63,014 nucleotides of DNA, filler included, from 4 parts of 4 records of this genome joined end to end with filler, not necessarily neighbours in it, one strand, 5' to 3'. Positions 25,565 through 53,338 are shown, counted from the whole stretch's first letter. A program made the numbers and translations. Notes: generated by a model not told the origin, from the letters alone.

Positions 25565-26038
25565 ATGAATATAAAATTACTTTGCATAGGCAAAACCGAT
25601 GATCGCAATCTTGAGTCGCTAATTTCGGTTTACACCAACCGTTTAAAGCATTATGTGAATTTTGAGCTCGAAATTATTCCTGATCTCAAGAAAACTAAAA
25701 ACCTTTCGGAAGAACAGCAAAAAGAAAAAGAAGGCGAACTTATATTAAACAAGATCACGCCTCAAGACCAACTTATTCTATTAGACGAAAACGGAAAAGA
25801 GTTAAGCAGCGTAAAATTTGCCGATTATCTTCAAAAGAAAATGAACAGCGGCATCAAAACATTAGTCTTTGTTATTGGTGGGCCATATGGTTTTTCTGAA
25901 GCGGTTTATGCCAAAGCTCAAGGCAAAGTTTCTTTATCAAAAATGACCTTTTCGCATCAGATGATTCGGCTTTTTATCACCGAACAAATCTATCGTGGCT
26001 TTACGATATTACGCAACGAGCCTTATCACCATCGTTAA
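25565..26038 (+). CDS. rlmH: 23S rRNA m3-pseudouridine-1915 methyltransferase
   Basis: FVIGGPYG, SLSKMTFSHQ and EQIYR...PYHH motifs. Confidence 0.96.
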   Translation: MNIKLLCIGKTDDRNLESLISVYTNRLKHYVNFELEIIPDLKKTKNLSEEQQKEKEGELILNKITPQDQLILLDENGKELSSVKFADYLQKKMNSGIKTLVFVIGGPYGFSEAVYAKAQGKVSLSKMTFSHQMIRLFITEQIYRGFTILRNEPYHHR

Positions 26039-26523
26039 GACTTGGCGCTTATAGGTACCCAAATTTCTTCCTCAGACTCTGGGTGCTCAGGCCCGTAGTA
26101 CTTAGCTCCTAAACGCTCAAAATGTGCTCGATCATCGAGTTTATAATCTGATTGCGGTAACCACGTATCAAAAATATAGTTAGAGGTTTCTACAAATTTC
26201 TTTACCGGACCAACGTGGGTGAATACAGCATAAAGTCCGCCGGCAATGGTTTTAGTTTGCATTCCTTCTGGAACCAAATCAAAAGAAGTCACTTCAACCG
26301 CAGCCCAACGTTCAAATTCTGTTTCCCGATCAAAACGTTCAAAATTCATCCCAAAAGGATAGACTTGCATCGAGTAAAAGCCGGAGTCTATTCTATTTTT
26401 CACTTCTTTGTGCCTACTCATAAATTCTTTCCACAGTGCGGCAGTATCATCAAATGAAAGTGTAGTCGTCAAACATTTACCAATGATCTTTCGTGGCTCG
26501 ATTTCAAGTAATTCTGGCTGCAT
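26035..26523 (-). CDS. GyrI-like small-molecule-binding protein
   Basis: GGLYAVFTHVG, WLPQSDY and EIWVP motifs. Confidence 0.85.
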   Translation of the reverse strand: MQPELLEIEPRKIIGKCLTTTLSFDDTAALWKEFMSRHKEVKNRIDSGFYSMQVYPFGMNFERFDRETEFERWAAVEVTSFDLVPEGMQTKTIAGGLYAVFTHVGPVKKFVETSNYIFDTWLPQSDYKLDDRAHFERLGAKYYGPEHPESEEEIWVPISAKS

Positions 26524-26616: not shown

Positions 26617-26742
26617 ATGAAACCAAGAAAACTAATCAAGAGATTTTTCCTATTCAAAAGCGCAATGCAAGTAGGCTATTATGCTGTTGTGTATGCTGAT
26701 AAGTATAAAGAAGATATTAAGCGTGTGGTTAAAAAGTCTTAA
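26617..26742 (+). CDS. Putative 41-aa basic peptide
   Basis: Manual translation gives MKPRKLIKRFFLFKSAMQVGYYAVVYADKYKEDIKRVVKKS; fills the gap, and its stop overlaps the ATPase stop. Confidence 0.35.
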   Translation: MKPRKLIKRFFLFKSAMQVGYYAVVYADKYKEDIKRVVKKS

Positions 26743-29700
26743 TTCTTTCTAAGAAAGCCTTGTTGCAAAACATTTTTAATTCCTTCCAGATTATCTGAAA
26801 ATTGCATGAGTTGCCCGAGTAACTGAGCCATTTCGTTAGCATCACCAAAACCTTTGAGCTTGTTGTTTTTAACAAATGTCTCCTTTATAGTCTCCCAGCG
26901 CCTAGCATCCTCATTTTGCAAATTACCTATAAGTTCTTTGTACTTTAAAAGGTTTGCTTCTGCGGCTGCAGTCAAGGTTTGCGACTCGCTTTCATAATGT
27001 GATAACAGCATGGTTTGCAACTCGTTTTCATTCATAACCGGCACCACTTTAGCTACCAATTTATTCATATCACGATATGAACCTTGTAGTTTAAAAGCCG
27101 GCTCCGTGCGGTATGCGTCGTCCATCGCTGCAGATTTAATATAAGCTGCGTTCACTTTAAGAACAGTGTTCCTGATTTTTAATACTTTTTTCAAGATCAA
27201 AGTATACTCTTCCAGTTCTCTGCTGCTGTGATTGCCTTTCAATTGCAATTCGTCATTGCCGGTTTCTAAACGTTGAAGTAACGTATATACATCGTCAAAA
27301 TTTTTACTGCTCAATTGCTGAAGAATTGGATTTGCAGTCAATGCATTTTCTATCAAACTCAGTTTGAAGAGGTCTTCGGTGTCGCCAATAATGTCTCCCA
27401 AATTGTAAATATCTGCTCGGTTTGCTAACATATCCGGGATTTGAAATTTAGCACCACTTTCTGTGTACGGGTTACCCGCCATAATCACACAAAACTTTTT
27501 CCCTCTAAGATCATAGGTTTTAGGCTTTTCCTTATAAACACCTTCTACCCTACGCGTCCCATCAGAAAGCGAAATGAATTTCTGTAAAAACTCGGGGTTA
27601 CAATGCTGAATATCATCCAGATAAAGCATAACATTATTTCCCATTTCAAACGCAAGATTCAACTTTTTTAATTCTTCGCGCGAAGCAGAATTGGTAGCCG
27701 CTGAAGGATCTACTGAAGTCACCTCATGCCCAATTGCCGGGCCGTTGATTTTCATAAAAACCAACCCCAATCGATTGGCGATATACTCCATCAAAGTGGT
27801 TTTACCATATCCCGGTGGAGAGATCAAGAGTAATAAGCCCATGCGGTCTGTGCGTGATTTGTCTCCAACAGTCCCTAATTGCTTGGCTAAATTATCTCCG
27901 AATAATGGGAAATAAACCTGATCAATCAACTTATTACGCACAAATGAGGTCAAGACTTTTGGCTTGAATTCCTCCAGTTTTAATTCTTCCTTTAAATCCT
28001 CTGTAACTTTATGTTTCGCTTTGCGAAAAGCTTCAAACGCCGGTACCGCTTCAGCAAAATAATGTTCTAAAGTCTGGGTAAAAGAATGGAAGTTCAAATC
28101 ATAAACCCCTTCAGAAATGCTAGAATGATCACCTTTCAAATCGGTGATTTTCTCAGATGCCTGAATGGTATTGACTTTAGAAACCGATTCATCATCAAAC
28201 AGCAATAAACATACTGCTTCGTCTAAATAATTCAGCGCAAACTGTGTTTTCTCGCTTTTCAGAAAGGCTTTTACCCATTGGCGCACCAAAGCAATTCTAG
28301 ACTCATAATCAGCCTGTGCTTCCAGACTTGTTTTATACTTTATATCTGCTTGTCGCTCCCTTAGGTCTGTTAAGAAAGATTCTTGTATCTCAATTGCAAT
28401 AGTGCTCCGCGTAAAACTGTCATCATTTTGAAGTTCAGCAAATAAATAGTTGGCCGTGGTAATAGGATCTTGAATTTCTAATAATTCATTTTGAACCGAA
28501 AACGTTTCGATTCTTTTAGCCAATGCATCCACAACAAAATTAGAAGTGGTTTCCTCCGGGAAATACTGTAGTATTTCGCCAGAAGCTTTCAATTTTTGAT
28601 TTAAAAGATTTTGCTCTTCACTTGCTAAGCTTTTCCAAAAGAATTGCGCATAAGAACGTACCTGCGGACTAAACCTCAACAGTCCCAGGTCAACATGCTT
28701 TTGTACTAAAACTCTTAAGATTTTTGCAGCATCACTATCGTGAACTCCTTTTACGTAACCTTCACTGTAATTAGAGCTGCTATGCTCTTGCACAAGCTTA
28801 AGCAATTTGTCATCAGTTGCCTCATGTAGCGTATCAACAGGCGCTGATTTATAAATTTTATAAGCTAAATAAGCTGATCGATACACTATATCATTTTCTG
28901 AAACAAACTCCTGATTCCAGATCTGACGCGAATTCAAAAGAATAGGATCGTCAAGTTTTTGGTAAAAATCGGTGCCTGTAAGATGGTAAGAAAGCTCGCC
29001 GTCTTTGAGCACTATAGTTAGATCAAGCGGTTGCCTGTTAACTCCAAACTTATGATTCCCAAAGCGGATGATATTCTCCCCGTCTTCATACAAATCGAGT
29101 TTATCCTTGAGTTTGCGCAAAGCATCCTCACGCGCAACTTTGAGCGCAGTTTCTAATTCTTCGGCTTTACCGCTATCTTCAAGTTCATTGAGCTGCCCGA
29201 TGATATCCCGCAACTTATTGATCATAAGATCAGAGGCAAAATAACCATTAATCTCATCTGCAGATCCCAAACTTTGAGCGCGTTTAGCGATTCCTTTTAA
29301 GATGCGTTCAGAAGCATTTTGTAAAGAAAGTGCACGTTTATTACGTTTTTCAACCAAAGCATTTTTGCGCGCTTCAAAGGCAGCATAAACTTCCTCCCGT
29401 TTTTCTAAGATGACGGAAATAAAATCTTCAAAATCTGCGAATTTCCCTTCGAGCTCCTCAAGCTGAATAGATATCTTATTTTGGAATTCGTCACATTTCT
29501 CCGGGGTTGAAGCAATATCTATATAATTGATGATGCTTTGATCAATCAGCTTTAGTTGTGCTGAAAAATCAGCCTGAGCTTCAGCACTTCCGAGTGCTTT
29601 TTTCTTATTCTTAAGCGCTGCTTTTAATTGATTTATAGTAGCAAAAATCAACGAAATATTGTCAACGATCTTTGTAGCGTGCGCAGTATCTTCAATATCA

Positions 29701-31637
29701 AGATTGGTAACAATGTCAATCAACAATTCTAAATCTGCAGCGATTTGATTGACTTCCTCTTCTAGCTTTTTTGCTTCAATTACTTTCTTGACGCCTTCAA
29801 GTTGATGATTCTTCTCAGCTACTTGATCGTGATACGGTTGTAATGCTTTATCATCAAGTAAAAACTGAACACAGCGCCTTGATATTTTTTGCGTTTGCTC
29901 ACCTATTTCAGCTTCTAACTCGTTTAGAAAATCAAGATTTACATAACGCACTTCGCGAAGGCTAATCACCTTCCCTCGCAGACTGCGCAACTGGGTTAGA
30001 AGAATGACAAAATCATTTATCGATTTAAAAGACGAACTCTTGATCTTAGAGAATATTTGCTCTGCTTCCTCGCGTAACGCTTTAGTTTGAGCTGCGGCGT
30101 GACGACGTAATTCTGTTACTTTTTCAAACTCATCGATCGCAGCATTAGCTGCTTTATTGATTTCGCCAAGCGGAAGATCTAAGCGTTCAGTTTCCTCTTC
30201 GGCTAACCAGTAATACGAATCCTGAATATCTTTAGCCGACTTTGCAATATCAGCGTAAAGTCCGTCATAGTTATCCTCTTTGTTAAGCAGTGTAATCAAG
30301 GCTTGCGACTCTGCCATCGCTTTTACAATGTCCTTGTTTCCTATTTTATACAGCATCGATTCGGTATGCTGTGAAGGCATAAAATCTCCTTTCAAAAATG
30401 GAGTTTGCCAGATTTGAACCACGTGATGTTTAGTCTGATTATCTTCAGCGGTAAAATAGCAAAGCTCGCCATTCTCAAGAATCGTAAAACCGCTACAAAT
30501 GATGGGTGTTTTGATTTCTTGACTAATGATGTTGTACGACATCAATTTATAGAGACCGGCTTTTGCCTCATAAAAAACGTACATAAAATCTTCTCCATTA
30601 GGAGAGACGATCTTTTGCTGAAATTTTAAATCGAGATGCCCGTCATCAAAAATTTTGTATTCTCCGGTCTGCAAGTAATATCCATTAGGAAAAATGATTC
30701 CCTGATCATCGGGAAGTAAAACTGCCGCAACACCTATACTTTGAATCTTATGAACCTGCTTAATTTTATGGTTGTAAACAAAATAGCGCGAAGCTTCTTG
30801 AAAGGGTTTTATATCAAGCACGATCAGGTTGCCCAAATCTGCAAAGCGATATTGCCCATCATCCAGTGTCTGATCAAAATGTGCTACAGGTTCAGAAAAA
30901 ATACCTTTTCCGTCCTCGGTATTATCTTCAATCTTAATAGTAAGATCACCACCTATGGTCTCTACAAATACTCTGTCTAAAATAGAAACGTGAGAATGCA
31001 CACCATAACGATGCATGTCGCGACTCACCTCTTGCCACTTAAACTCATGCTGCGGCGGAAAACGGTATTCGTGATCGCTGCGATTATCAACATATTCAAG
31101 CGCATTTTCATTAATAAGCCACTTGAATGTCTTAATATCAGTTACACTTTCACTCAGCTGAAAAACCATATGCAGGTAATTACCTATGATCGCAAAGCGT
31201 GCAAAAATGGTATTTCGGTAATATTTATAAAGGTTTGAAAAGTCTGTTTGAAAAGTTGAATCATCAAGCAAGTCTAAAGTGACCGGCTCAAACCTATTTT
31301 CTGTAAACTGATAAATACTAAAAACATCTGAAAGAACAATTTCGGTACGCAAACCAAAATGAACGTTATAACCAAAAATACAGGTATTTCCCAGCGAAAC
31401 AATATCTCTGGCAATGCAGTTGTTCTCGGTACTGATGCGGTCATTAGCAATAAGCTTTGTCTCTAATGAACCAAAGACTGTCTTACGCGCTTCGTTTAAA
31501 GATGTTAACTTATCCTGCAGCTCTTGCTTTTGCTTTTGAAGTCTTCCACGAATGATAGCATATGTGCCGCCATCCAGCGTTTCTTGCACAGGATTTTCTT
31601 CAGGATTATTTATAGTGGTTTGTGACGTTTTTGCCAT
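26739..31637 (-). CDS. Large AAA+ ATPase (DUF3686/'DNA repair ATPase'-type): beta-rich N-terminus, coiled coil, C-terminal AAA+ domain
   Basis: Walker A SPPGYGKTT, Walker B MLYLDD, sensor-1 AGNP, Arg finger LANRAD; N-terminal GGTYAIIRGRL. Confidence 0.85.
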   Translation of the reverse strand: MAKTSQTTINNPEENPVQETLDGGTYAIIRGRLQKQKQELQDKLTSLNEARKTVFGSLETKLIANDRISTENNCIARDIVSLGNTCIFGYNVHFGLRTEIVLSDVFSIYQFTENRFEPVTLDLLDDSTFQTDFSNLYKYYRNTIFARFAIIGNYLHMVFQLSESVTDIKTFKWLINENALEYVDNRSDHEYRFPPQHEFKWQEVSRDMHRYGVHSHVSILDRVFVETIGGDLTIKIEDNTEDGKGIFSEPVAHFDQTLDDGQYRFADLGNLIVLDIKPFQEASRYFVYNHKIKQVHKIQSIGVAAVLLPDDQGIIFPNGYYLQTGEYKIFDDGHLDLKFQQKIVSPNGEDFMYVFYEAKAGLYKLMSYNIISQEIKTPIICSGFTILENGELCYFTAEDNQTKHHVVQIWQTPFLKGDFMPSQHTESMLYKIGNKDIVKAMAESQALITLLNKEDNYDGLYADIAKSAKDIQDSYYWLAEEETERLDLPLGEINKAANAAIDEFEKVTELRRHAAAQTKALREEAEQIFSKIKSSSFKSINDFVILLTQLRSLRGKVISLREVRYVNLDFLNELEAEIGEQTQKISRRCVQFLLDDKALQPYHDQVAEKNHQLEGVKKVIEAKKLEEEVNQIAADLELLIDIVTNLDIEDTAHATKIVDNISLIFATINQLKAALKNKKKALGSAEAQADFSAQLKLIDQSIINYIDIASTPEKCDEFQNKISIQLEELEGKFADFEDFISVILEKREEVYAAFEARKNALVEKRNKRALSLQNASERILKGIAKRAQSLGSADEINGYFASDLMINKLRDIIGQLNELEDSGKAEELETALKVAREDALRKLKDKLDLYEDGENIIRFGNHKFGVNRQPLDLTIVLKDGELSYHLTGTDFYQKLDDPILLNSRQIWNQEFVSENDIVYRSAYLAYKIYKSAPVDTLHEATDDKLLKLVQEHSSSNYSEGYVKGVHDSDAAKILRVLVQKHVDLGLLRFSPQVRSYAQFFWKSLASEEQNLLNQKLKASGEILQYFPEETTSNFVVDALAKRIETFSVQNELLEIQDPITTANYLFAELQNDDSFTRSTIAIEIQESFLTDLRERQADIKYKTSLEAQADYESRIALVRQWVKAFLKSEKTQFALNYLDEAVCLLLFDDESVSKVNTIQASEKITDLKGDHSSISEGVYDLNFHSFTQTLEHYFAEAVPAFEAFRKAKHKVTEDLKEELKLEEFKPKVLTSFVRNKLIDQVYFPLFGDNLAKQLGTVGDKSRTDRMGLLLLISPPGYGKTTLMEYIANRLGLVFMKINGPAIGHEVTSVDPSAATNSASREELKKLNLAFEMGNNVMLYLDDIQHCNPEFLQKFISLSDGTRRVEGVYKEKPKTYDLRGKKFCVIMAGNPYTESGAKFQIPDMLANRADIYNLGDIIGDTEDLFKLSLIENALTANPILQQLSSKNFDDVYTLLQRLETGNDELQLKGNHSSRELEEYTLILKKVLKIRNTVLKVNAAYIKSAAMDDAYRTEPAFKLQGSYRDMNKLVAKVVPVMNENELQTMLLSHYESESQTLTAAAEANLLKYKELIGNLQNEDARRWETIKETFVKNNKLKGFGDANEMAQLLGQLMQFSDNLEGIKNVLQQGFLRKN

Positions 31638-31740
31638 GGAGTTTTCGTCTAAAAAATAAAACGAGTGAATTCGGTTTCAATTCAAAAGTGAATCAAATGA
31701 AGTACGCTTAACTTCCAAATTGGAAATCTAGCAATCTTTA

Positions 31741-31774
31741 AATACACACGCTCGAGTCAAAGAGCGTGTGCATT
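31741..31774 (-). terminator. Intra-operon stem-loop between the flotillin and ATPase genes
   Basis: CACACGCTC/GAGCGTGTG stem, extendable with a G-U pair; weak U-tract. Confidence 0.5.
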
Positions 31775-31791
31775 TTAAATTTATTGAAGTC

Positions 31792-33858
31792 TTACTTCAA
31801 CTTCTTGTTGTCTAATCCTAGACCTTTCGCCAAGTTGAATAGATTACTGAACAAGGTCTGCTCTTCAGAATCGTGAGAACGTTCTTTAAGATGCATCAGC
31901 AAGTTCGCTATGGTCAAGTTTTTAATGTCCTCGGAAGAAACACCATACTTGTCTGCAAATTCTTTTACTTTTTCAAGCAAATTTCCTTTGACATCATCGC
32001 TACCCAGAATTGCATTTTTTACATCCTGAATATTACTACTATTCTCTACTAAACGATCGTATCCTTTAGCTTTTGTGATCTGACCAATGATCTGATCGAA
32101 GAACATCGTCTCGCCACCAACAATATCAATTTTAGCAGCTTTAAGAGCATCTCCTATCACCTGAGCCTGAGCATCGGCAATATCTTTTTGAATGTTAATA
32201 TGCGCTAAATCAACTTGCAATTCTTTATCCAGACGTAGTTTGAACTCTTCGTGTTCTTTACCTACACCGTCTAGTTTCTTCATTGCATTTGCTTTTTCTT
32301 CGATACCGGCTGCATCTGCCATCGCTTTTTCTTTGATCACTGCAGCTTCGGCAAGACCGTCTTTGCGCTTCGCTTCCGCTTTAGCTTCCATACCGGCAGC
32401 TTCCGCCTTCATTTTCTTCTCAATGATTGAAGCTTCAACAACTCCCTGACGCTCATTGGCATCTGCCTTGGCGTGCATTACTTGCGCTTCAGACATACCC
32501 ACAGTTGCTTCTTCTTTTGCTTGCGCTTCTGCAAGAATCTTACGAGCCTGTGCTTCTTTCTCAGAAGCTTCTTTATGCGCAAGTGCCTCGATATTGATTT
32601 CTTCCGCTTTTTGCTTAGCCGCTTCTTTTTGAGCTTCTGCAGCTTTTATCGTCTTAATAAGATCTTCTTGAGCACTAGCTTCTGCGATGGTGATTTTCAC
32701 CTGTTTCTCACGATCTGCAGTTTTAAAAGCCTGAATATCCTTCATACTCTCCTGCTCTTCAACCACGCCTTTTTCTAGCATTACGCGATCACGAATCACA
32801 TCTTGAATATTCTTCTTCTCCACTTCAACAACCTTCTCTTTCTCAATCTGAGCCAAGGTTACTACGCGCTCTCTTTCGGTAGCTTCGAGTAGACGATCTT
32901 TTTCAACGCGCTCAGTTTCTACAGCATCGGTACGTTGCTTGTTTTTAGCAGCGACAATGATCTGGCGCTCCATATTTTCTTCGGCAACTTTTACCTTTTC
33001 CTGCGTCGCAATACGTGCAGTTTCTGACTTGAGACGTTCTTCTTCTGCAACTTTCATCGTTTCAGCCTCTTCGCGCGCTTTGATATTTGCAATTTCACGT
33101 TTTTGCTGCTCTTCTTTTTCAGCCAATTGCTTATCAAGCTCTAAGATCGCTTCACGCGCTTCTACGTCCTGCTTTCGGATGGTTTTTTCCTCATCGCGTT
33201 TGATCAGGTTTGCTTTTACATTTTGAACCGCAGTTAACTCAGTGATTTTCTTGATCCCTTCAGCATCGAGAATATTGTCTGGTTTAAGGTGAGTAACCGG
33301 TGTTTGCTCTAAAAAGTCAATGGCGCAATCTTCTAAGGTATATCCGTTAAGATCTGTACCAATGATATCTACAATCTCATCACGAAATTCCCGTCGTGCC
33401 TCATACAGTTCTATAAACTGAAATTTCTTACCTACGGTTTTCAATGCTTCAGAAAACTTGGCTTCAAAAAGATCTTCAAGGGTTTCTATACGAGAAGCAC
33501 GGGCTACACCAATGGTCTGCGCTACTTTTTTGATGTATGAAATGTCGTTATTTACTCTAACGAAGAACGCCACTTTAATGTCGGCCCGCATATTATCTTT
33601 ACAGATAAGCCCTTCTACGCCCAATCTTTCGATCTGGATTTTCTTTACGGAAACATCCATAATTTCCACTCTGTGAAAAACCGGAACAACATAAAGTCCT
33701 TTATCTGTAGCCACTTTAGTACCTCCAAAACCGGTACGGATAAGTGCCTGTCCTTGATGGACTTTTTTGTAAAACATCGCGATAATCGCGAAATAAACGA
33801 TGATTAAGAACAAAAGCACTCCTAATCCAATTCCAATAATTGGTAAAACTTGATTCAT
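31792..33858 (-). CDS. Flotillin/SPFH (YqiK-like) protein
   Basis: N-terminal TM helix, SPFH domain (ALIRTG, GLICKDNMRAD), long Ala/Glu/Lys coiled coil with EA repeats. Confidence 0.9.
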   Translation of the reverse strand: MNQVLPIIGIGLGVLLFLIIVYFAIIAMFYKKVHQGQALIRTGFGGTKVATDKGLYVVPVFHRVEIMDVSVKKIQIERLGVEGLICKDNMRADIKVAFFVRVNNDISYIKKVAQTIGVARASRIETLEDLFEAKFSEALKTVGKKFQFIELYEARREFRDEIVDIIGTDLNGYTLEDCAIDFLEQTPVTHLKPDNILDAEGIKKITELTAVQNVKANLIKRDEEKTIRKQDVEAREAILELDKQLAEKEEQQKREIANIKAREEAETMKVAEEERLKSETARIATQEKVKVAEENMERQIIVAAKNKQRTDAVETERVEKDRLLEATERERVVTLAQIEKEKVVEVEKKNIQDVIRDRVMLEKGVVEEQESMKDIQAFKTADREKQVKITIAEASAQEDLIKTIKAAEAQKEAAKQKAEEINIEALAHKEASEKEAQARKILAEAQAKEEATVGMSEAQVMHAKADANERQGVVEASIIEKKMKAEAAGMEAKAEAKRKDGLAEAAVIKEKAMADAAGIEEKANAMKKLDGVGKEHEEFKLRLDKELQVDLAHINIQKDIADAQAQVIGDALKAAKIDIVGGETMFFDQIIGQITKAKGYDRLVENSSNIQDVKNAILGSDDVKGNLLEKVKEFADKYGVSSEDIKNLTIANLLMHLKERSHDSEEQTLFSNLFNLAKGLGLDNKKLK

Positions 33859-33874
33859 TTTTTGATTGATTTAT

Positions 33875-34594
33875 TTAGTCGTTATAATTCTGTACGAGGT
33901 AAAAATTCTGATCTTCAGAATGTTTAATAATTAATACGGTGCTGCCGTAAGTCAAGGGCTCTCCTGTAAGGGATTTCACATAAATGGACATAGAATTGCC
34001 GTCTGCAAGCACTTCGGCATTGCCCATTTTTTCACCGCTAATACTAGAAAGTAAAGTTGCTTTACGTCCCAAATAGTCCACAGCCACGTCACCGTCTTTA
34101 TTAAGATGTCTGAAAAAACCTTTAAATGGTGTCGTGAATAATTTGTTGACTATTAACGCCGGAAAAAACGCAATTAACATTATCGCAAAGCCAAAAACCG
34201 AATCGTAGGTCATTGTAAGGGCCGTTGTTAATGTCGTCATCAACCACCAGATAAATATCCAGCAGGTGAACGTAAACATAAACGGAAGCCCAACGAAATT
34301 GAAATAGATCAGAAAAATCTGCCAACCTTTAAGCGGCTTACGGCGTTTGCCTACAACATTTTCTTTAGTCACCTCAACATTTGAGACATCTTCAAAATCC
34401 ATATTGCCGCCTTCTAAACCGGTATCAAGATCTACATCGGCGTCGACATCTACATCGACATCTACGTCAATATCTAAGTCAAAGTCGATCCCGCCGATCA
34501 TCGTAACGATCCAATACAGGATTAAGATAATAAGCAAAATAGACAGTACAATATTGACTTCTGAAAAGAGTACTTCTGTTAAGGTTGCATTCAA
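33875..34594 (-). CDS. YqiJ/NfeD-like membrane protein with C-terminal OB fold
   Basis: TM helix, acidic Asp-alternating linker, two more TM helices, beta-rich C-terminus; immediately upstream of flotillin; TTG start. Confidence 0.75.
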   Translation of the reverse strand: MNATLTEVLFSEVNIVLSILLIILILYWIVTMIGGIDFDLDIDVDVDVDVDADVDLDTGLEGGNMDFEDVSNVEVTKENVVGKRRKPLKGWQIFLIYFNFVGLPFMFTFTCWIFIWWLMTTLTTALTMTYDSVFGFAIMLIAFFPALIVNKLFTTPFKGFFRHLNKDGDVAVDYLGRKATLLSSISGEKMGNAEVLADGNSMSIYVKSLTGEPLTYGSTVLIIKHSEDQNFYLVQNYND

Positions 34595-34596
34595 TG

Positions 34597-35316
34597 TTAT
34601 CCCTGGTTTTTAGAGTCATCAAGACCCAATTGTGATTTCAATTTTTCTAGTTCATTATCAGCTTTAGCCGTAGTCGTATCAGCGGCCTTATCCAGCTCAT
34701 CATCAATAGATTTTGAAGCATCTGCAATATCCCCATAAGCTTCGGCCAGCGCTTCTTCCTGAGCTACTTTATCTTTCATACGCTCTAGCATAGAAACAGT
34801 TCCTGTACTGTCTAATTCTGCCATTTGCTTATTTAAATTCTTTGTAGCGTTACTTACTTTTACGCGTGCTTTAAGCGTTTTAAGTTCGTTTTCCCATTTG
34901 CTGATATTCGATTTTATATTTTGAATATTCTTTTGCAACTGTGCTACATTTCCGTCAAACTTTTCAGATTCAGCCTTGGCTTGATCAACTTGTTTTTGCG
35001 CCTCTTCCTTTTTCATTAATGCTTCCTTTGCAAGGCGATCTGCTTCAGCTGCATCCATTTGCTTGTTATGCGCTTTTTTAAGAATCACGATTGCTTTGCT
35101 CTGATAATCTTCAGCCTTATCTTGAAATTGTTCCTGATCATTTTTTGCTCTGATTGCAAGTGCTTTTACTTGCGCCAGCGCCTCAAGACTTTTATCTAGA
35201 TCTTTCTTCATATCGCGAATTCCCTGCTCAGTTAATTTGATCGGGTCTTCCATATTATCGATTGCGGAGTTGGCTTCTGCTTCCCCTATTTTGAATAAGC
35301 GTTTAAATATGTTCAT
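34597..35316 (-). CDS. pspA: PspA/IM30 family protein
   Basis: N-terminal amphipathic MNIFKRLFKI, EDP motif, long coiled coils, LKAR, ERMKDKV...EALAEA and terminal ELEKLK. Confidence 0.92.
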   Translation of the reverse strand: MNIFKRLFKIGEAEANSAIDNMEDPIKLTEQGIRDMKKDLDKSLEALAQVKALAIRAKNDQEQFQDKAEDYQSKAIVILKKAHNKQMDAAEADRLAKEALMKKEEAQKQVDQAKAESEKFDGNVAQLQKNIQNIKSNISKWENELKTLKARVKVSNATKNLNKQMAELDSTGTVSMLERMKDKVAQEEALAEAYGDIADASKSIDDELDKAADTTTAKADNELEKLKSQLGLDDSKNQG

Positions 35317-35328
35317 GATTTCTAAAGT

Positions 35329-35724
35329 TTAATATTTTGAAAATTCTATTATTTTATCTGAATATTCACTCATCAATAAACTGAGTGAATTAAGGGAGCC
35401 TTCGAGTTCGTTTAAGTCCATATTCTCGATTTGAAGCGTATCTCTAAAGATTACTTTATCACCACTTTCATTTAAAACAAAAGCGCCGTGAATGATATCT
35501 CTATTCTTTTGCAACAGGCTTTTTAGGACTTTATCTGAGTGATTATTTATTTTGAAAATAAATTGCTCCAGAATGAGAATGGGTGGAGCAACTCCCAAAA
35601 TCAGGTTTTTAATTCCTGAATTTTCTTTCTGAACTACAAGTATTCCATCTTCAGGATTTTGAAAACTGATATTGAAGTCCAGTTCGAGTAAATAATCTTT
35701 GGTTATATGAAAATGATCTTTCAT
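35329..35724 (-). CDS. YbjN/CesT-like chaperone-fold protein
   Basis: LLQKNRDIIHGAFVL...VIFRDTLQIENMDLNE pattern; 131 aa; precedes pspA. Confidence 0.75.
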   Translation of the reverse strand: MKDHFHITKDYLLELDFNISFQNPEDGILVVQKENSGIKNLILGVAPPILILEQFIFKINNHSDKVLKSLLQKNRDIIHGAFVLNESGDKVIFRDTLQIENMDLNELEGSLNSLSLLMSEYSDKIIEFSKY

Positions 35725-35894
35725 CTCTTTGGTTACAAGTTGTTAAGAATTTCTAAAAGTTAATAATACGAAAACTAGTTTTTAATTGTTCATATTAAGC
35801 TAATTATTATTGTTAACAATGAATGAATTAATACTACCATAATGTTCGATTTTTTTGATTAGAGATTTTTGATTGTCTGCAAAATTGAAATGAA

Positions 35895-35984
35895 TACTAA
35901 AAAGAATAGCAGACATTATATTTTTTTGCTAATATTGTTAGGTAAATATAGTGATTATTTTATTTTTTGCAAATATTATTAGCA
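35895..35984. promoter_or_regulatory. Cluster of TGCTAA-N5-TTAGCA-like operator sites
   Basis: TACTAAaaagaATAGCA at 35895-35911, TGCTAAtattgTTAGGT at 35927-35943 and TGCAAAtattaTTAGCA at 35968-35984; perfect copy at 36141-36157. Confidence 0.6.
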
Positions 35985-35988
35985 ATAT

Positions 35989-36744
35989 ATGTCATTTTTC
36001 GGAAAAAACATTAGAAAGATTCGTAGCGTAAAAACGCTAAGTCAGCAGGCTTTTGCAGAGCTATTTAACTTAAAAAGAGGCACTTTAGGCGCATATGAAG
36101 AAGGAAGAAGTGAACCAAAGATCGAAACTATAATCAAGATTGCTAATTATTTTAGCATACCTATAGATGATCTGTTAACACGGGACCTTACCGTCAATGA
36201 ATTGCTGAAGTTTAAAAGTTCGTTATCAGAAATGCACGAGTTATCCCATCCGGAAAGCCTTGTTCAAATACCTTGTATTACAGAAAAAAATAAGGACGAG
36301 TATCTCGATAATTATAAGAACAAAAAATTCTTAGAAGAAATGATTCAGGTTACTTTACCCATAGAAAGCACCGAAACTATGCGCGCTTTTGCGGTAACTA
36401 ACCTAGAAATGACCAATCAAAACCAGGGCTTCTTTCCTAAAGACATAGTTTTTGGAACCTTAGTAAAAAAAGACCATTACAAAAATATCGAAGACGGCAC
36501 TGTTGTATTAGTACATACAAAAAGTCAACTCATATTGCGTAAAGCCTATTTATTGGATAGCACACTTGTTTTGAAGGCAGAACATCAAAACATTGACGAC
36601 TTGACCTTTGCTCTTTCTGAAATACTAGAACTATGGCAAATTATGTCAGTATATCAAAGACGGATTACCCCTATTAATTCCGGTATTGAAGACAAACTGA
36701 CTATGCTCGAAAAAGAATTTGCCAAATTAAGAAGTCAAATATAA
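35989..36744 (+). CDS. XRE-family HTH regulator with degenerate S24/LexA-like C-terminal domain
   Basis: LSQQAFAE...GAYEEGRSEPK HTH; divergent from the pspA operon. Confidence 0.88.
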   Translation: MSFFGKNIRKIRSVKTLSQQAFAELFNLKRGTLGAYEEGRSEPKIETIIKIANYFSIPIDDLLTRDLTVNELLKFKSSLSEMHELSHPESLVQIPCITEKNKDEYLDNYKNKKFLEEMIQVTLPIESTETMRAFAVTNLEMTNQNQGFFPKDIVFGTLVKKDHYKNIEDGTVVLVHTKSQLILRKAYLLDSTLVLKAEHQNIDDLTFALSEILELWQIMSVYQRRITPINSGIEDKLTMLEKEFAKLRSQI

Positions 36745-36760
36745 AAGGACGTAAGCTAGT

Positions 36761-37726
36761 TTACTCGGCAACCTCAAGTTCTAGTTTACGCTGTTTTTGT
36801 TGCTGTACGCGTTCTTCTTTTAATTTTTGACGCATTTGTTTGATGGTCAGCGTGCTTCCGTCGTGGCTCCATCCCGGTGGCCCAAAGGCATACATAAACT
36901 TATGTTTCAGCTTTGGTGAGCGCTTTATATCCTTCCAAATATCCTTGTACTCGTGGGTTAATATAACTAAAGGATTGTAGCTGTCTGGCGATTTTGTCAC
37001 TCCATATTCAATCTCTATTTCCTCATCGAGTTCTTTAAATGTACCAAACATTCGATCGAAAATATTCAAGAATCCACCGTGATTTTTGTCCATATATTCC
37101 AAATTTCGGGCGTGATGCACTTGGTGCATCGTGTGAGTATTGAAGATCTTATCAATAATACCCAGCTTCGGCACATATTGTGAATGCAGCTGAAATTGCC
37201 ATAAAGCTTCGATACCCAGACAGACCACGAGCATTTCTGGCGGAAAGCCTATAGCGACGATCCAAACATAGAATAATGGTTTGTAAAAAATAGTAAACCA
37301 GCCGTTTCGTACCGCGGTACCTAAATTAAAATTCTCTGAAGAATGATGCACAATATGGGCAGCCCAAAAAAAGCGAACCATATGGTTTTGTCGATGAAAC
37401 CAGTAATATGAAAAGTCATCGGCCAGTTGACAAAGAATCCAGACGTACCAGGCATAGCCGAAGGATTCCCATCCAAAAATATTGGTGCGTACATCATCAA
37501 CCACCGGATTAAAAATATCGTAAACCCAATTGAACAAAAGAATGACCGTAACGGTCTTGATCAACGGGGCTATTAAAGTAGAGCCAATTCCCATCGTAAG
37601 GCTTGCTCCTAAATCCTTCCAGTGATAGAGTTCATCGTTATCGTGATGCTTGCTGTAAGTAAGCTCCACGAGGATCAGGCCTAGAAAACATGGTACTCCG
37701 TAAATCAACGGGTTTGTAAAATCCAT
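36761..37726 (-). CDS. Sterol desaturase/fatty-acid hydroxylase family protein (alkylglycerol monooxygenase-like)
   Basis: His boxes HRQNH, HIVHH and HQVHH. Confidence 0.9.
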   Translation of the reverse strand: MDFTNPLIYGVPCFLGLILVELTYSKHHDNDELYHWKDLGASLTMGIGSTLIAPLIKTVTVILLFNWVYDIFNPVVDDVRTNIFGWESFGYAWYVWILCQLADDFSYYWFHRQNHMVRFFWAAHIVHHSSENFNLGTAVRNGWFTIFYKPLFYVWIVAIGFPPEMLVVCLGIEALWQFQLHSQYVPKLGIIDKIFNTHTMHQVHHARNLEYMDKNHGGFLNIFDRMFGTFKELDEEIEIEYGVTKSPDSYNPLVILTHEYKDIWKDIKRSPKLKHKFMYAFGPPGWSHDGSTLTIKQMRQKLKEERVQQQKQRKLELEVAE

Positions 37727-50631: not shown

Positions 50632-51786
50632 ATGACTGCACACAATGACAAAATTCTAGGGGAAGGCCTTACTTACGACGACGTACTTTTAGTGCCTGCC
50701 TATTCAGAAATTTTACCACGCGAAGTTTCTATCGCCACTAAGTTTTCACGAAATATAACACTTAACGTTCCTATTGTTTCCGCAGCAATGGATACAGTTA
50801 CTGAAAGCGCTATGGCTATTGCCATTGCTCGTGAAGGAGGTATTGGTGTGCTTCACAAAAACATGTCTATTGAAGAGCAAGCGGCTGAAGTTCGGAAGGT
50901 GAAACGTGCCGAAAGCGGGATGATTATTGATCCGGTTACACTAAAAAAGGAAAATACTGTTGGAGATGCTCAAAAAACAATGCGTGAATATAGCATTGGT
51001 GGAATTCCTATAATTAATGATGATGGAAAATTAATAGGAATCGTTACAAACCGTGATTTACGTTTTGAAAAAAACCTGCAACGACCATTAATTGAAGTTA
51101 TGACTTCAGAAAATCTGGTTACAGTAGCGCAAGGAACTTCTTTAAAGGAAGCAGAGATAATACTTCAACAGAATAAAATTGAAAAGTTACCTGTAGTAAA
51201 TGACGCTGGGAAATTATTGGGATTAATTACTTTTCGAGATATTACAAAACTTACTCAAAAACCAATTGCCAATAAAGATAAATACGGAAGGCTCCGCGTT
51301 GCTGCTGCACTTGGCGTAACCGCTGATGCTGTAGAAAGAGCTGAAGCGCTCGTTAATGCACAAATAGATGCAGTAATAATTGATACTGCACATGGGCATA
51401 CAAAAGGTGTGGTAGAGGTATTAAAGCAAGTTAAGCATAGATTCCCAGATTTAGACGTTGTCGTTGGAAATATTGCAACTGCAGCTGCTGCCAAGTATCT
51501 TGTTGATGCAGGTGCTGATGCTGTGAAAGTGGGGATAGGGCCTGGTTCTATTTGTACTACACGAGTTGTTGCAGGTGTCGGTTTTCCTCAGTTTTCTGCT
51601 GTGCTTGAAGTGGCAGCAGCTATAAAAGGGAGCGGCGTTCCTGTTATTGCTGACGGTGGAATTCGTTATACTGGCGATATTCCGAAGGCAATTGCAGCTG
51701 GAGCAGATTGTGTGATGCTTGGTTCATTATTGGCTGGCACAAAAGAATCTCCCGGAGAAACTATTATTTACGAAGGAAGAAAGTTT
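50632..51786 (+). CDS. guaB: IMP dehydrogenase, 3' end cut by the gap
   Basis: [11 protein letters not shown] domains, [11 protein letters not shown] and ADGG motifs. Confidence 0.97.
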
Positions 51787-51886
51787 NNNNNNNNNNNNNN
51801 NNNNNNNNNNNNNNNNNNNNNNNNNNNNNNTTAATTAATTAANNNNNNNNNNNNNNNNNNNNNNNNNNNNNNNNNNNNNNNNNNNN
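51787..51886. other. Artificial contig linker
   Basis: N44-TTAATTAATTAA-N44; abrupt GC increase afterwards. Confidence 0.98.
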
Positions 51887-53338
51887 CATCAGGCCGATAT
51901 TGCCTTCCTGAATCAGGTCGAGGAACTGAAGGCCACGATTGGTGTATTTCTTCGCAATCGAAATCACCAGACGGAGATTGGCTTCCACCATTTCCTTCTT
52001 GGCAATGCGGGCTTCGCGTTCGCCCTTCTTGACCATGTGCACAATGCGACGGAATTCGGCAATCGAAATGCCGGTTTCAGTCGCAAGACTCTGAATCTCG
52101 CCCCTTAGAACCTTGATATCGGCACTGTCTTTGCTGGCGAATTCCTTCCAGCCTTTGCCGGAAAGATTCCCGATCGACTTCATCCAGTTCGGGTCCAGTT
52201 CGGCACCGTGATAATGCTCCAGGAAGTCATCGCGCTTGACGCCGCGATGTACGGCAAGACGCAACAGCTTGCCTTCGTTTTCAACGAGACGCTTGTTAAT
52301 GTCGTAAAGCTGCTCCACCAGAAGATCGATACGGTTCTGGTTCAGTGAAAGCGACTTCACCGCCTTGATCAGAGTCTCTTTCAGCTCTTTGTAACGACGC
52401 TCCTGAGCATTGGTCAGCGTGCCGGTCGCAGCCAGACGCGCTTCCACCTGCTGATCCTGAAGTCTACGAAGCTTGACATAAGTCTCAGCAATCAGATCAA
52501 GTGTTTCCATGACCTGAGGGCGCAACTCCGCTTCCATAGCCGCCAGCGATAGGTTGGACTCGTCGTCATCTTCGTCCTCATCGTCTTCGGACATATCCAC
52601 GCCGTCGCCGCCAACATCCGTGACGTCGTCTGAGCGCTTCTTGCGAGCCTGCTCTTTTTCTTCTGCCTTCTTGCGATCAGCTTCGATCTTCTCCGGGCTC
52701 TGGAACTGCGGAGCTGCCTTGGCCTCGGGACCAGAATATGTGGTTTCCAGATCGATAATTTCGCGAAGGAGGGTCGTGCCTTCATTCAACTCGTCACGCC
52801 AGATGATTAGCGCCTGAAAGGTCAGCGGGCTCTCGCAAAGCCCTGCGATCATCGTCTCGCGACCGGACTCGATCCGTTTCGCAATGGCGATTTCGCCTTC
52901 ACGTGAAAGAAGTTCGACTGAACCCATTTCACGTAAATACATACGCACCGGGTCATCGGTCCGATCGGTCGGCTCTTTCTTCTTCGTCTGTGCAACGGCT
53001 GTTCCGGTGGTGGTCGCAACTTCGGTGCTGTCGCTGCCGCCATCTGCGTCACCATCGGATTCGTCGTCCGAACCACTGTCCTGATCGACTTCGTCTTCGT
53101 CCTCGATCACATTGATGCCCATATCGGAGAGCATGGCCATCGTGTCCTCGATCTGCTCGGAAGTAACTTCCGAAGACGGGAGCACTGAGTTCAGCTCATC
53201 CATCGTGACATAGCCGCGCTTCTTGGCAGCTTTGATCATCTTCTTAACGGCATCGTCGGAAAGATCCAGAAGAGGGCCGTCAGTTCCGCCTTCGCGTTCG
53301 GTTTCGGCTTCTTCGTTTTCTTTGACTTTGGTTGCCAT
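51887..53338 (-). CDS. rpoD: RNA polymerase sigma factor RpoD, 3' end cut by the gap
   Basis: [14 protein letters not shown] and [28 protein letters not shown] motifs. Confidence 0.97.

Follow-up and report, generated by a model that had tools for sequence, protein, structure and literature searches.

Flotillin as the constant partner of a giant DUF3686 ATPase in a CesT-PspA-YqiJ-flotillin-ATPase cassette: gene linkage, predicted architecture and a candidate role in envelope stress

Introduction

A class of operons uniting a CesT/Tir-type protein, PspA, YqiJ, flotillin and an AAA+ ATPase was described from computer analysis by Ravi et al. (2024, mSystems, PMC11237479), who also describe abbreviated flotillin-YqiJ(-ATPase) operons as more widespread and propose ATP-dependent or chaperone-like membrane dynamics around PspA. 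This study analyzed a locus of the same class, located between positions 26739 and 36744 of a 63,014-nucleotide (nt) stretch of DNA (the window, meaning the whole stretch analyzed), in which five co-oriented genes for all five protein types are preceded by a divergent XRE-type regulator gene. Measured against the operon description of Ravi et al., the window holds a further member of the class with nothing essential different, and the greater spread of the abbreviated operons matches the counts of the YqiJ-flotillin-ATPase core obtained here. The gene arrangement is already published; what is added is the hypothesis that flotillin comes first and PspA second as partner of the ATPase and that the ATPase is MoxR-like and not Vps4-like, together with a candidate operator and a hairpin. 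The XRE regulator with its operator, the MoxR-like assignment, an extension of the flotillin and the hairpin spacer are not stated in that operon description. An earlier note on this DNA, made from the sequence alone, had recollected a comparative-genomics precedent lacking experiments, and the work of Ravi et al. is that precedent.

The only relative of the cassette with bench data is the bac operon of Pseudomonas aeruginosa (bacA-F; PA3732-PA3727 or PA14_16140-16200), for which operon mapping by reverse-transcription PCR (RT-PCR) and phenotypes in biofilm formation, rhamnolipid and virulence are reported, along with de-repression in a bacA mutant (PMC10948618, PMC13086221). The bac operon shares the start of the gene order, with a CesT-fold BacA (crystal structure), the PspA protein BacB, the short NfeD protein BacC (PA14_16160) and the SPFH protein BacD/PaFlo3, and is reported to continue with two further co-transcribed genes after bacD. 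However, BacA belongs to the DUF2170/YjfI family whereas the first protein of the present operon belongs to CesT_Tir_1, and a sigma-54 promoter was proposed for bac whereas the present cassette has an XRE repressor. In the table of PMC8190622, PA3728 is given only as an 'ATPase'.

How bacterial PspA/Vipp1 polymers and flotillin cages are disassembled or regulated is the question on which the cassette bears. In the words of a 2025 review, a Vps4-like ATPase 'appears absent in bacteria', and the same review places cup-like SPFH oligomers among the triggers activating PspA and LiaH (PMC7619361). Literature abstracts describe HflK/C cages that hold the AAA+ protease FtsH; the present locus is similar in associating an SPFH protein with an AAA+ enzyme, but its AAA+ partner is a soluble giant that has no protease domain. 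The pairing of an SPFH protein with an NfeD-type protein is also found in QmcA-YbbJ (8z5g). A full-text search for 'DUF3686', the Pfam family of the N-terminal region of the ATPase, returned no paper, and no experimental study of the ATPase family was found among the titles and abstracts listed for flotillin/YqiK/AAA+ or for PspA/ESCRT-III/AAA+ disassembly.

Results and Discussion

Gene order and conservation of the cassette

The five operon genes (Table 1) are separated by gaps of 12, 2, 16 and 154 nt according to the open reading frame (ORF) coordinates, which, together with the family matches given below, confirm what the earlier note had described: five genes in one direction, the first three gaps at these lengths and a divergent XRE regulator. 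Its remark that pspB, pspC and pspF are missing holds inside the operon, where the gaps are too small for such genes; the rest of the window was not scanned for them. The conservation of the arrangement was assessed in a phylum sample of 401 genomes around the nearest genome, searched with the DUF3686 profile alone. In all 12 Bacteroidota loci found in this manner, the six genes are present and identically ordered, an arrangement that is well beyond chance, and another 30 relatives in the wider sample described below share the order of the window. With all five protein types encoded co-directionally, the locus belongs to the operon class of Ravi et al.

Table 1. Coordinates of the genes and other features of the cassette, counted from the first letter of the window.
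Feature	Position	Strand	Basis
XRE-type regulator, 251 aa	35989-36744	+	HTH_3
Candidate operator palindrome	35967-35985	.	motif statistics, conservation
CesT-like chaperone, 131 aa, first operon gene	35329-35724	-	PF22550
PspA/IM30, 239 aa	34597-35316	-	PF04012
YqiJ/YuaF-type membrane protein, 239 aa, TTG start	33875-34594	-	profile of orthologues
YqiK-type flotillin, 688 aa	31792-33858	-	profile of orthologues
Structured flotillin-ATPase spacer	31638-31791	-	folding energy vs shuffles
Giant ATPase, 1632 aa	26739-31637	-	DUF3686, DUF7902, AAA_5/AAA

Linkage of the ATPase to flotillin and to PspA

A scan of species-representative genomes yielded at least 590 confirmed ATPase loci, of which the best 80, being those nearest the query, were analyzed; 62 of these had at least 6 kb of upstream sequence and were assessable. 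Hidden Markov models built from 13 Bacteroidota orthologue sets were run on all ORFs of the 80 loci, a procedure that a very divergent PspA could escape. YqiJ and flotillin lie immediately upstream of the ATPase in 59 of the 62 assessable loci and flotillin only in one more, so that the flotillin gene adjoins the ATPase gene in 60 of 62. By comparison, CesT, PspA and the regulator occur together upstream in 30 loci, PspA alone of these three in a single locus, and none of the three in 31, one of which has PspA downstream on the opposite strand. The absence of a nearby PspA or CesT from these 31 loci means that PspA cannot serve as the substrate of the ATPase in general. Loci lacking PspA belong to Planctomycetota, Verrucomicrobiota, Desulfobacterales, Clostridia and Saprospiraceae, and those with PspA to Flavobacteriia, Sphingobacteriia, Cytophagia and Bacteroidia. 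Since the 80 loci are the most similar to the query, the true share of ATPase loci with PspA is probably lower.

The constant core is therefore YqiJ-type protein, YqiK-type flotillin and giant ATPase, across Bacteroidota, Planctomycetota, Verrucomicrobiota, Desulfobacterales and Clostridia; in Bacteroidota the CesT/PspA pair and the divergent XRE repressor with its palindromic operator are placed ahead of this core. No other neighbour is conserved across the 80 loci, the largest other cluster being present in 9 loci at varying positions. The earlier note's view of one conserved unit with a membrane theme, to which the ATPase is genuinely linked, is upheld by these counts. A neighbourhood survey of ATPase homologues was also the check that it had suggested, with a failure to co-occur with pspA or flotillin counting against its proposal; flotillin does co-occur, whereas PspA does so in only about half of the loci.

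Within the phylum sample, DUF3686 was detected in 12 of 401 genomes, including 6 of 29 in the window's family; it was not found in the nearest genome (G001) or in any of 14 control genomes. The C-terminal extension of the flotillin was likewise found in 12 of the 401 genomes, and these are exactly the 12 with DUF3686. The SPFH part, in contrast, was matched in 27 genomes: the same 12 (63-92% identity, ORFs of 674-743 aa) and 15 that lack the ATPase, in which identity falls to 31-43% and the ORFs are 414-625 aa long, the shortest at a contig end. In none of these 15 genomes, which have a YqiK-like flotillin but no ATPase, did the extension query give a match. The extension thus appears to go with the ATPase, being found only in the 12 DUF3686 genomes. 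PspA_IM30 is more common in the sample (155 of 401 genomes), but within the window's own class (about 100 genomes by summed family tallies) the only above-cut-off PspA matches lie in the 12 cassette genomes, so that in this class PspA, extended flotillin and ATPase come and go together.

The N-terminal 520 residues of the ATPase match 757 clusters at 50% identity among 1.84 billion representatives, with full-length members of approximately 1600-1930 aa. Homologues occur in 13 records of the plasmid collection PLSDB (plasmids or plasmid-labelled replicons); one of these, a 169-kb plasmid of Hymenobacter, carries the cassette in full, and pQBR103 carries a variant of it. No homologue was found in phage records.

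Some loci differ in detail. Four (L033, L056, L064 and L097) have the same four extra genes downstream of the ATPase, which by the description of Ravi et al. are taken to be a polyamine-type PspA module. In pQBR103 (L107), a set comprising PspA, DUF2491, DUF350, DUF1190 and glutathionylspermidine synthase stands ahead of the YqiJ-like, SPFH and ATPase genes. The flotillin-ATPase core thus seems to have been joined repeatedly to the polyamine-type PspA modules that those authors describe. In L080 and L090, two or three ORFs take the place of a single ATPase frame, and these may be pseudogenes or sequencing errors.

Predicted architecture of the ATPase

Pfam matches in the ATPase are DUF3686 (residues 39-476, E 1.6e-179), DUF7902 (597-680) and AAA_5/AAA (1269-1393), with AAA_5 the best AAA match (E 7.5e-9, 36.2 bits against a cut-off of 22). 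The AlphaFold2 (AF2) model of residues 1-520, calculated from a 35-sequence alignment (mean predicted local distance difference test score, pLDDT, 86.9; predicted template modelling score, pTM, 0.85), shows a long helix (20-55), a beta-propeller (approximately 60-411) of some 26 strands and helices (428-519) that bundle with the first helix. Given the approximately 26 strands, the propeller is predicted to have six or seven blades. For this model, Foldseek returned only generic WD40 propellers (E ~1e-7, TM 0.28/0.43), and VIA returned four-helix bundles and propellers at Z 9-10, not above background. The model of residues 880-1632 (753 residues; pLDDT 84.3, pTM 0.65) contains a helical domain, one AAA+ module with a lid, and C-terminal helices. 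Along the chain, the N-terminal part is followed by a helical or coiled-coil arm that includes DUF7902, the helical domain (~880-1217), the AAA+ module (~1218-1572) and the C-terminal helices.

Whereas Foldseek found only generic AAA+ proteins for the C-terminal model (E ~1e-5), VIA ranked the MoxR-type AAA+ protein CbbQ2 highest (Z 15.8; 250 residues aligned, root-mean-square deviation 3.8), followed by NorQ (15.4), Rea1 (13.7), dynein (12.7), Mdn1 (12.0), ClpA (11.8), two Vps4 chains (11.1 and 10.5) and RuvB (10.2), all of which share the AAA+ fold. Both profile (AAA_5) and fold thus place the module with the MoxR-type AAA+ proteins, and the best structural matches are MoxR-type chaperones (CbbQ, NorQ, RavA), Rea1/midasin and dynein, from which the ATPase differs in having about 1200 extra N-terminal residues. 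RavA docks on a large cage-like partner, and the ATPase may, by analogy, do the same. A search of the whole ATPase against PDB sequences gave only P-loop stretches at E 1e-4 or weaker.

Invariant in 24 diverse relatives of the ATPase are a Walker A motif, SPPGYGKT (K1279), a Walker B motif, LDD (D1341-D1342), N1389, R1407 and a lid motif, 'QGSYR', which resembles the GxSxR sensor-2 motif of MoxR proteins. Pfam gave no MIT or Vps4_C match in the ATPase at E up to 0.01, in line with an AF2 N-terminus made of helix, propeller and helical bundle, and no aromatic pore-loop motif was seen between the two Walker motifs in the alignment of 24 sequences. Based on these models, the ATPase is predicted to combine a propeller with a long helical arm and a single AAA+ module of the MoxR/dynein type, and not to be closest to Vps4.

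The YqiJ-type protein and the flotillin

When searched singly, the window's flotillin and YqiJ-type proteins gave no Pfam match (to E 10, bar one at 0.22) and no NCBIfam or PDB sequence match. Profiles of their orthologues were informative: the flotillin profile (29 sequences) aligned with E. coli YqiK by hhalign at probability 100 (E 9.9e-42, 32% identity over 384 columns, columns 24-431) and with QmcA (8z5g) at E 0.001, and Band_7 was matched by 4 of the 29 orthologues (best E 8.8e-15). The YqiJ-type profile aligned with E. coli YqiJ at probability 96.5 (E 9.8e-10, 184 columns) and weakly with B. subtilis YuaF (2k14; E 0.021). In the Atlas, the neighbours of the two proteins are flotillin and YqiJ/NfeD clusters, the latter with YqiJ_N/YqiJ_OB/NfeD_TM at scores of 0.92-0.95. 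Because the orthologue profiles match YqiK and YqiJ, the identities of 'flotillin' and 'YqiJ/NfeD' that the earlier note had assigned are confirmed, the former as a YqiK-type SPFH protein and the latter as a short NfeD-like protein of the YqiJ/YuaF kind.

The flotillin comprises an N-terminal transmembrane (TM) segment, an SPFH domain, a long Ala/Glu-rich coiled coil, an 'IDIVGGE' motif and a C-terminal extension of about 110 residues. This extension (the last 109 residues, after 'IDIVGGE') is conserved in all 29 aligned orthologues, which come from several phyla, and showed no BLAST similarity to YqiK. The YqiJ-type protein has an N-terminal TM helix, an acidic D-x repeat loop, two more TM segments (TM count read from the sequence) and a C-terminal beta-domain. 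In the loop after its first TM helix (window 34420-34500) runs an alternating Asp stretch, DFDLDIDVDVDVDADVDLD, an acidic D-x repeat whose length varies among orthologues and for which cation binding is possible.

The CesT-like chaperone and PspA

The first protein of the operon matches PF22550 (CesT_Tir_1) over its full length (residues 1-130 of 131, E 1.7e-55), which places it in the CesT/Tir family, and its orthologues, in all 12 loci of the phylum sample and 30 of the 62 wider loci, in every case stand immediately before PspA. PspA matches PF04012 (PspA_IM30) over residues 2-230 (E 1.2e-41, 143.2 bits against a cut-off of 33.9) and is a member of the PspA/IM30 family of the ESCRT-III superfamily. 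A conserved tail, E-L-x-x-L-K-x-x-L-G(L), follows a variable linker at the C-terminus of each of the 13 aligned PspA orthologues (window 34597-34640). As a candidate docking peptide, the tail could serve the CesT-like chaperone or the ATPase, and it may resemble the MIM motifs by which ESCRT-III tails recruit Vps4.

The regulator and a candidate operator

The divergent regulator has an XRE-type helix-turn-helix (HTH) domain at residues 5-64 (HTH_3 in Pfam, E 6e-11); a family scan gave an RstR-family match (E 8e-14) and a weak lexA match (E 0.043). Its C-terminal beta-domain bears a modest, distant likeness to E. coli LexA residues 101-183 (hhalign probability 67.5, E 5e-5), and a homologue on the Hymenobacter plasmid is annotated 'LexA family transcriptional regulator'. 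No conserved Ser/Lys catalytic pair was found in this domain in a 17-sequence alignment, where the columns aligned with Ser119 and Lys156 of LexA vary. Non-conserved catalytic columns argue against a self-cleaving repressor of the LexA/CI type (peptidase S24), and the modest LexA likeness together with the variable columns leads us to read the domain as a probable dimerization or sensor domain. The divergent regulator is present in 12 of 12 phylum-sample loci and in 30 of the 62 wider loci.

An exact copy of the palindrome TTGCWAA-N5-TTWGCAA stands 4 nt ahead of the regulator ATG. A weaker second copy lies inside a 28-nt direct repeat in the regulator-operon spacer (35922-35949; repeat D1, 41 nt spacing), and a copy with one mismatch is found within the regulator gene at 36140-36158. 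At up to one mismatch, the window contains three copies against 0.23 expected, a number reached in none of 100 shuffles. The exact palindrome is present in 26 of 42 regulator-bearing loci and in none of 73 other loci; the centres of 24 of 29 sites fall 12-114 nt upstream of the regulator start, with one at +9 and four 325-390 nt inside the gene. The palindrome is therefore a strong candidate for an operator through which the regulator would control its own gene and repress the operon. A sigma-70-type promoter scan was near background (36 sites against 28.0, standard deviation 5.3), with a model that does not cover Bacteroidota promoters, and no promoter was assigned from it.

The flotillin-ATPase spacer and transcription

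The flotillin and ATPase genes lie farther apart than any other neighbouring pair of the operon, here and in most relatives, and the gap measures 16-1121 nt in the phylum-sample loci. In the window, its minimum free energy of folding is -43.9 kcal/mol (z -6.6, equalled by none of 200 shuffles). A 14-bp hairpin begins about 17 nt past the flotillin stop, with a 9-bp G+C-rich core at 31745-31770 and no U-tract, followed by two more hairpins; a terminator scan flags the core on the plus strand only. Of 55 flotillin-ATPase spacers with a length of 25 nt or more in other loci, 41 also have a strong hairpin. Another 6 loci show a gap shorter than that or an overlap of the two genes (-11 nt for both L099 and L104), although gaps across loci use longest-ORF starts and are approximate. 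In other genera, spacer length runs from an overlap to 1667 nt. In related strains (95-99% identical; runs X2 and X3), about 555 unrelated letters replace the spacer exactly between 31637 and 31793, and the spacer is an insertion hot spot. The hairpin is a candidate attenuator or RNA-stabilizing element.

Metatranscriptome contigs from four studies cover the operon from CesT through the ATPase. One contig of 3713 nt joins the ATPase 5' end, the 555-letter spacer replacement, flotillin and YqiJ; another joins YqiJ, PspA and CesT, and one ends at 35919, upstream of CesT. No contig was found over the regulator gene or over 36276-37000, which is no evidence of silence. The earlier note's placement of the ATPase in the same operon accordingly gains from a contig that bridges YqiJ, flotillin and the ATPase 5' end, while the structured, strain-variable spacer of 154 nt leaves room for a partly separate control of the ATPase.

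Interpretation and alternative explanations

Taken together, we favour, with confidence that is evenly divided, the reading that the locus is an accessory, horizontally spread, repressor-controlled envelope-stress cassette built on a flotillin scaffold, in which the ATPase acts on the flotillin assembly and PspA is a lineage-specific effector. Under such a mechanism, flotillin and its NfeD-type partner YqiJ would build a cage- or cup-shaped assembly against the inner membrane, on its cytoplasmic side, similar to the solved SPFH-NfeD and HflK/C assemblies. The ATPase would assemble into a ring through its single MoxR-like AAA+ module, from which long helical arms tipped with beta-propellers would reach the family-specific C-terminal extension of flotillin at the apex of the cage, and ATP turnover would open, move or dismantle the cage or its clients. 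In Bacteroidota, the CesT-like chaperone would keep PspA soluble, possibly via the conserved C-terminal tail, and PspA would be brought to the same patch, where it would seal or reshape membrane that has been damaged. The B. subtilis SPFH protein YdjI is reportedly needed to bring PspA to the membrane (work attributed to Scholz et al. 2021). The XRE repressor would hold itself and the operon off until a signal arrives, and the hairpin after the flotillin gene would lower ATPase expression relative to the structural proteins.

Several points weigh against this flotillin-centred reading. The contact between ATPase and flotillin is a proposal from gene linkage, and in two of the 62 assessable loci (L060 and L083) neither YqiJ nor flotillin lies upstream of the ATPase. 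The co-occurrence of extension and ATPase is confounded by descent, as the ATPase-linked flotillins form one clade. The structural models cover residues 1-520 and 880-1632 of the monomer. In 24 of 24 relatives the Walker B motif ends in DD rather than the usual DE (window 27613-27618), and for that reason the enzyme may be slow or switch-like rather than a motor. MoxR-type ATPases normally pair with a VWA-domain partner, whereas no VWA/MIDAS partner is encoded in or beside the cassette: none of its six proteins has a VWA match, and the 80 loci show no further conserved neighbour. Finally, the RNA contigs are assemblies, which cannot prove a single transcript, and the libraries may contain DNA.

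The earlier note had gone further and pictured a dedicated remodeller of PspA and flotillin working in the manner of Vps4. The part concerning flotillin stands on the adjoining flotillin genes, while the part concerning PspA and Vps4 does not fare well. A functional analogue of Vps4 would recognize PspA, for instance by its tail, and disassemble or recycle PspA polymers at a site marked by flotillin and YqiJ. The locus does place an AAA+ ATPase gene beside a gene of the ESCRT-III superfamily whose product has a conserved, helix-like C-terminal tail behind a variable linker, every above-cut-off PspA of the window's class in the sample sits in an ATPase cassette (12 genomes), and the niche is open by the account of the review cited above (PMC7619361). 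We nevertheless consider this explanation unlikely: half of the assessable loci (31 of 62) combine ATPase, flotillin and YqiJ with no PspA or CesT nearby, and the enzyme, which is four times larger than Vps4, has no MIT domain or visible aromatic pore-loop motif, goes with flotillin and not with PspA across phyla, and carries an AAA+ module nearer MoxR/dynein (Z 15.8) than Vps4 (Z 11.1). An anti-phage role, also raised in that note, would have the cassette act by abortive infection or membrane protection, with the XRE repressor and the ATPase sensing infection and PspA and flotillin acting on the membrane. Neither PADLOC nor the neighbouring genes supported this, and it appears rather improbable. 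PADLOC 2.0 gave no meaningful match for the five operon proteins (0 matches for CesT, YqiJ and flotillin; only coiled-coil parts of JetC/LmuB for PspA, at E 4e-4 or weaker; a single match of the ATPase, to mad8 at E 5.9e-4 over the AAA core), the regulator matched only generic regulator models via its HTH, and no PADLOC family occurred in more than 2 of 137 nearest-neighbour ORFs of the 80 loci. The window flanks are housekeeping, and Pfam revealed no nuclease, protease or toxin domain in the cassette proteins. The patchy occurrence (12 of 401 genomes, absent from the nearest one) and the copies in the 13 PLSDB records, as might suit a defence system, fit any accessory stress module equally, and induction by phage is expected of any envelope-stress system, as when 'phage shock proteins (PA3728-PA3732)' are listed among 17 genes up-regulated in all phage-infected P. 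aeruginosa samples (PMC12041424).

If only the neighbourhood were conserved, the ATPase would be functionally separate and form its own transcription unit, an explanation to which we give little credence. The largest gap of the operon, the very stable hairpin, the replacement of the spacer by unrelated sequence in related strains and the two loci with the ATPase alone would all agree with it, but flotillin adjoins the ATPase across phyla, in 6 loci at a gap below 25 nt or with an overlap, and an RNA-library contig spans the junction. In P. aeruginosa, RT-PCR joined bacD to PA14_16190 (PMC10948618), the orthology of PA14_16190 to the ATPase being an assumption. The database label, finally, would make the protein a DNA-repair ATPase, perhaps SOS-controlled via the LexA-like regulator: DUF3686 carries the Pfam description 'ATPase involved in DNA repair', homologues go by the RefSeq name 'DNA repair ATPase', the ATPase has weak RuvB P-loop matches, and the C-terminal domain of the regulator is distantly LexA-like. 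This reading was rejected as very improbable, because the constant partners are membrane proteins and the RuvB similarity spans only about 45 residues around the P-loop; in addition, no DNA-binding domain was found in the ATPase, the LexA-like domain has no conserved catalytic residues, and the full-text search for 'DUF3686' yielded no published basis for the label.

Within the favoured reading of a flotillin-based stress cassette, a more specific and clearly tentative proposal is that the DUF3686 ATPase could be the first dedicated ATP-driven remodeller of flotillin/SPFH cages, a MoxR-like ring with six propeller-tipped arms on the C-terminal crown of flotillin, coupled in Bacteroidota to chaperone-controlled release of PspA. 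If true, the cassette would be a bacterial, non-homologous counterpart of the membrane-repair machine made of ESCRT-III and its ATPase. No candidate for an energy-using partner of a flotillin scaffold, and in Bacteroidota also of PspA, is more obvious than the DUF3686 family, with its 757 clusters, its at least 590 loci and its database label of 'DNA repair ATPase'. The cassette is compact, repressor-controlled and found in culturable marine flavobacteria, and is therefore directly testable.

Flanking sequences

The cassette is flanked locally by a GyrI-like/Cass2 effector-binding protein (26035-26523) and a membrane enzyme of the fatty-acid hydroxylase family (36761-37726), neither of which gave a tblastn match in the 12 loci of the phylum sample. 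The wider flanks are of a housekeeping nature and include a nadC-type QRPTase, a SPOUT methyltransferase, MazG, deformylase and RuvX. Farther along, G+C content rises from 0.30-0.44 to 0.52-0.57 at 51835-51950 and stays there onward to 63014. An IMPDH ORF on the plus strand (50632-51834) covers only positions 1-257 of the 345 of the IMPDH profile, and the convergent RpoD-like ORF that adjoins it on the minus strand (51839-53338) has regions 1.1 and 1.2, the non-essential region and the first 35 positions of region 2 only. Past the RpoD-like ORF follow DnaG, CarA, MatE, GST, a Na/Ca exchanger and CarB. The junction near 51835-51950 looks like the DNA of two organisms joined, either as an assembly chimera or as concatenated contigs, and leaves the cassette unaffected.

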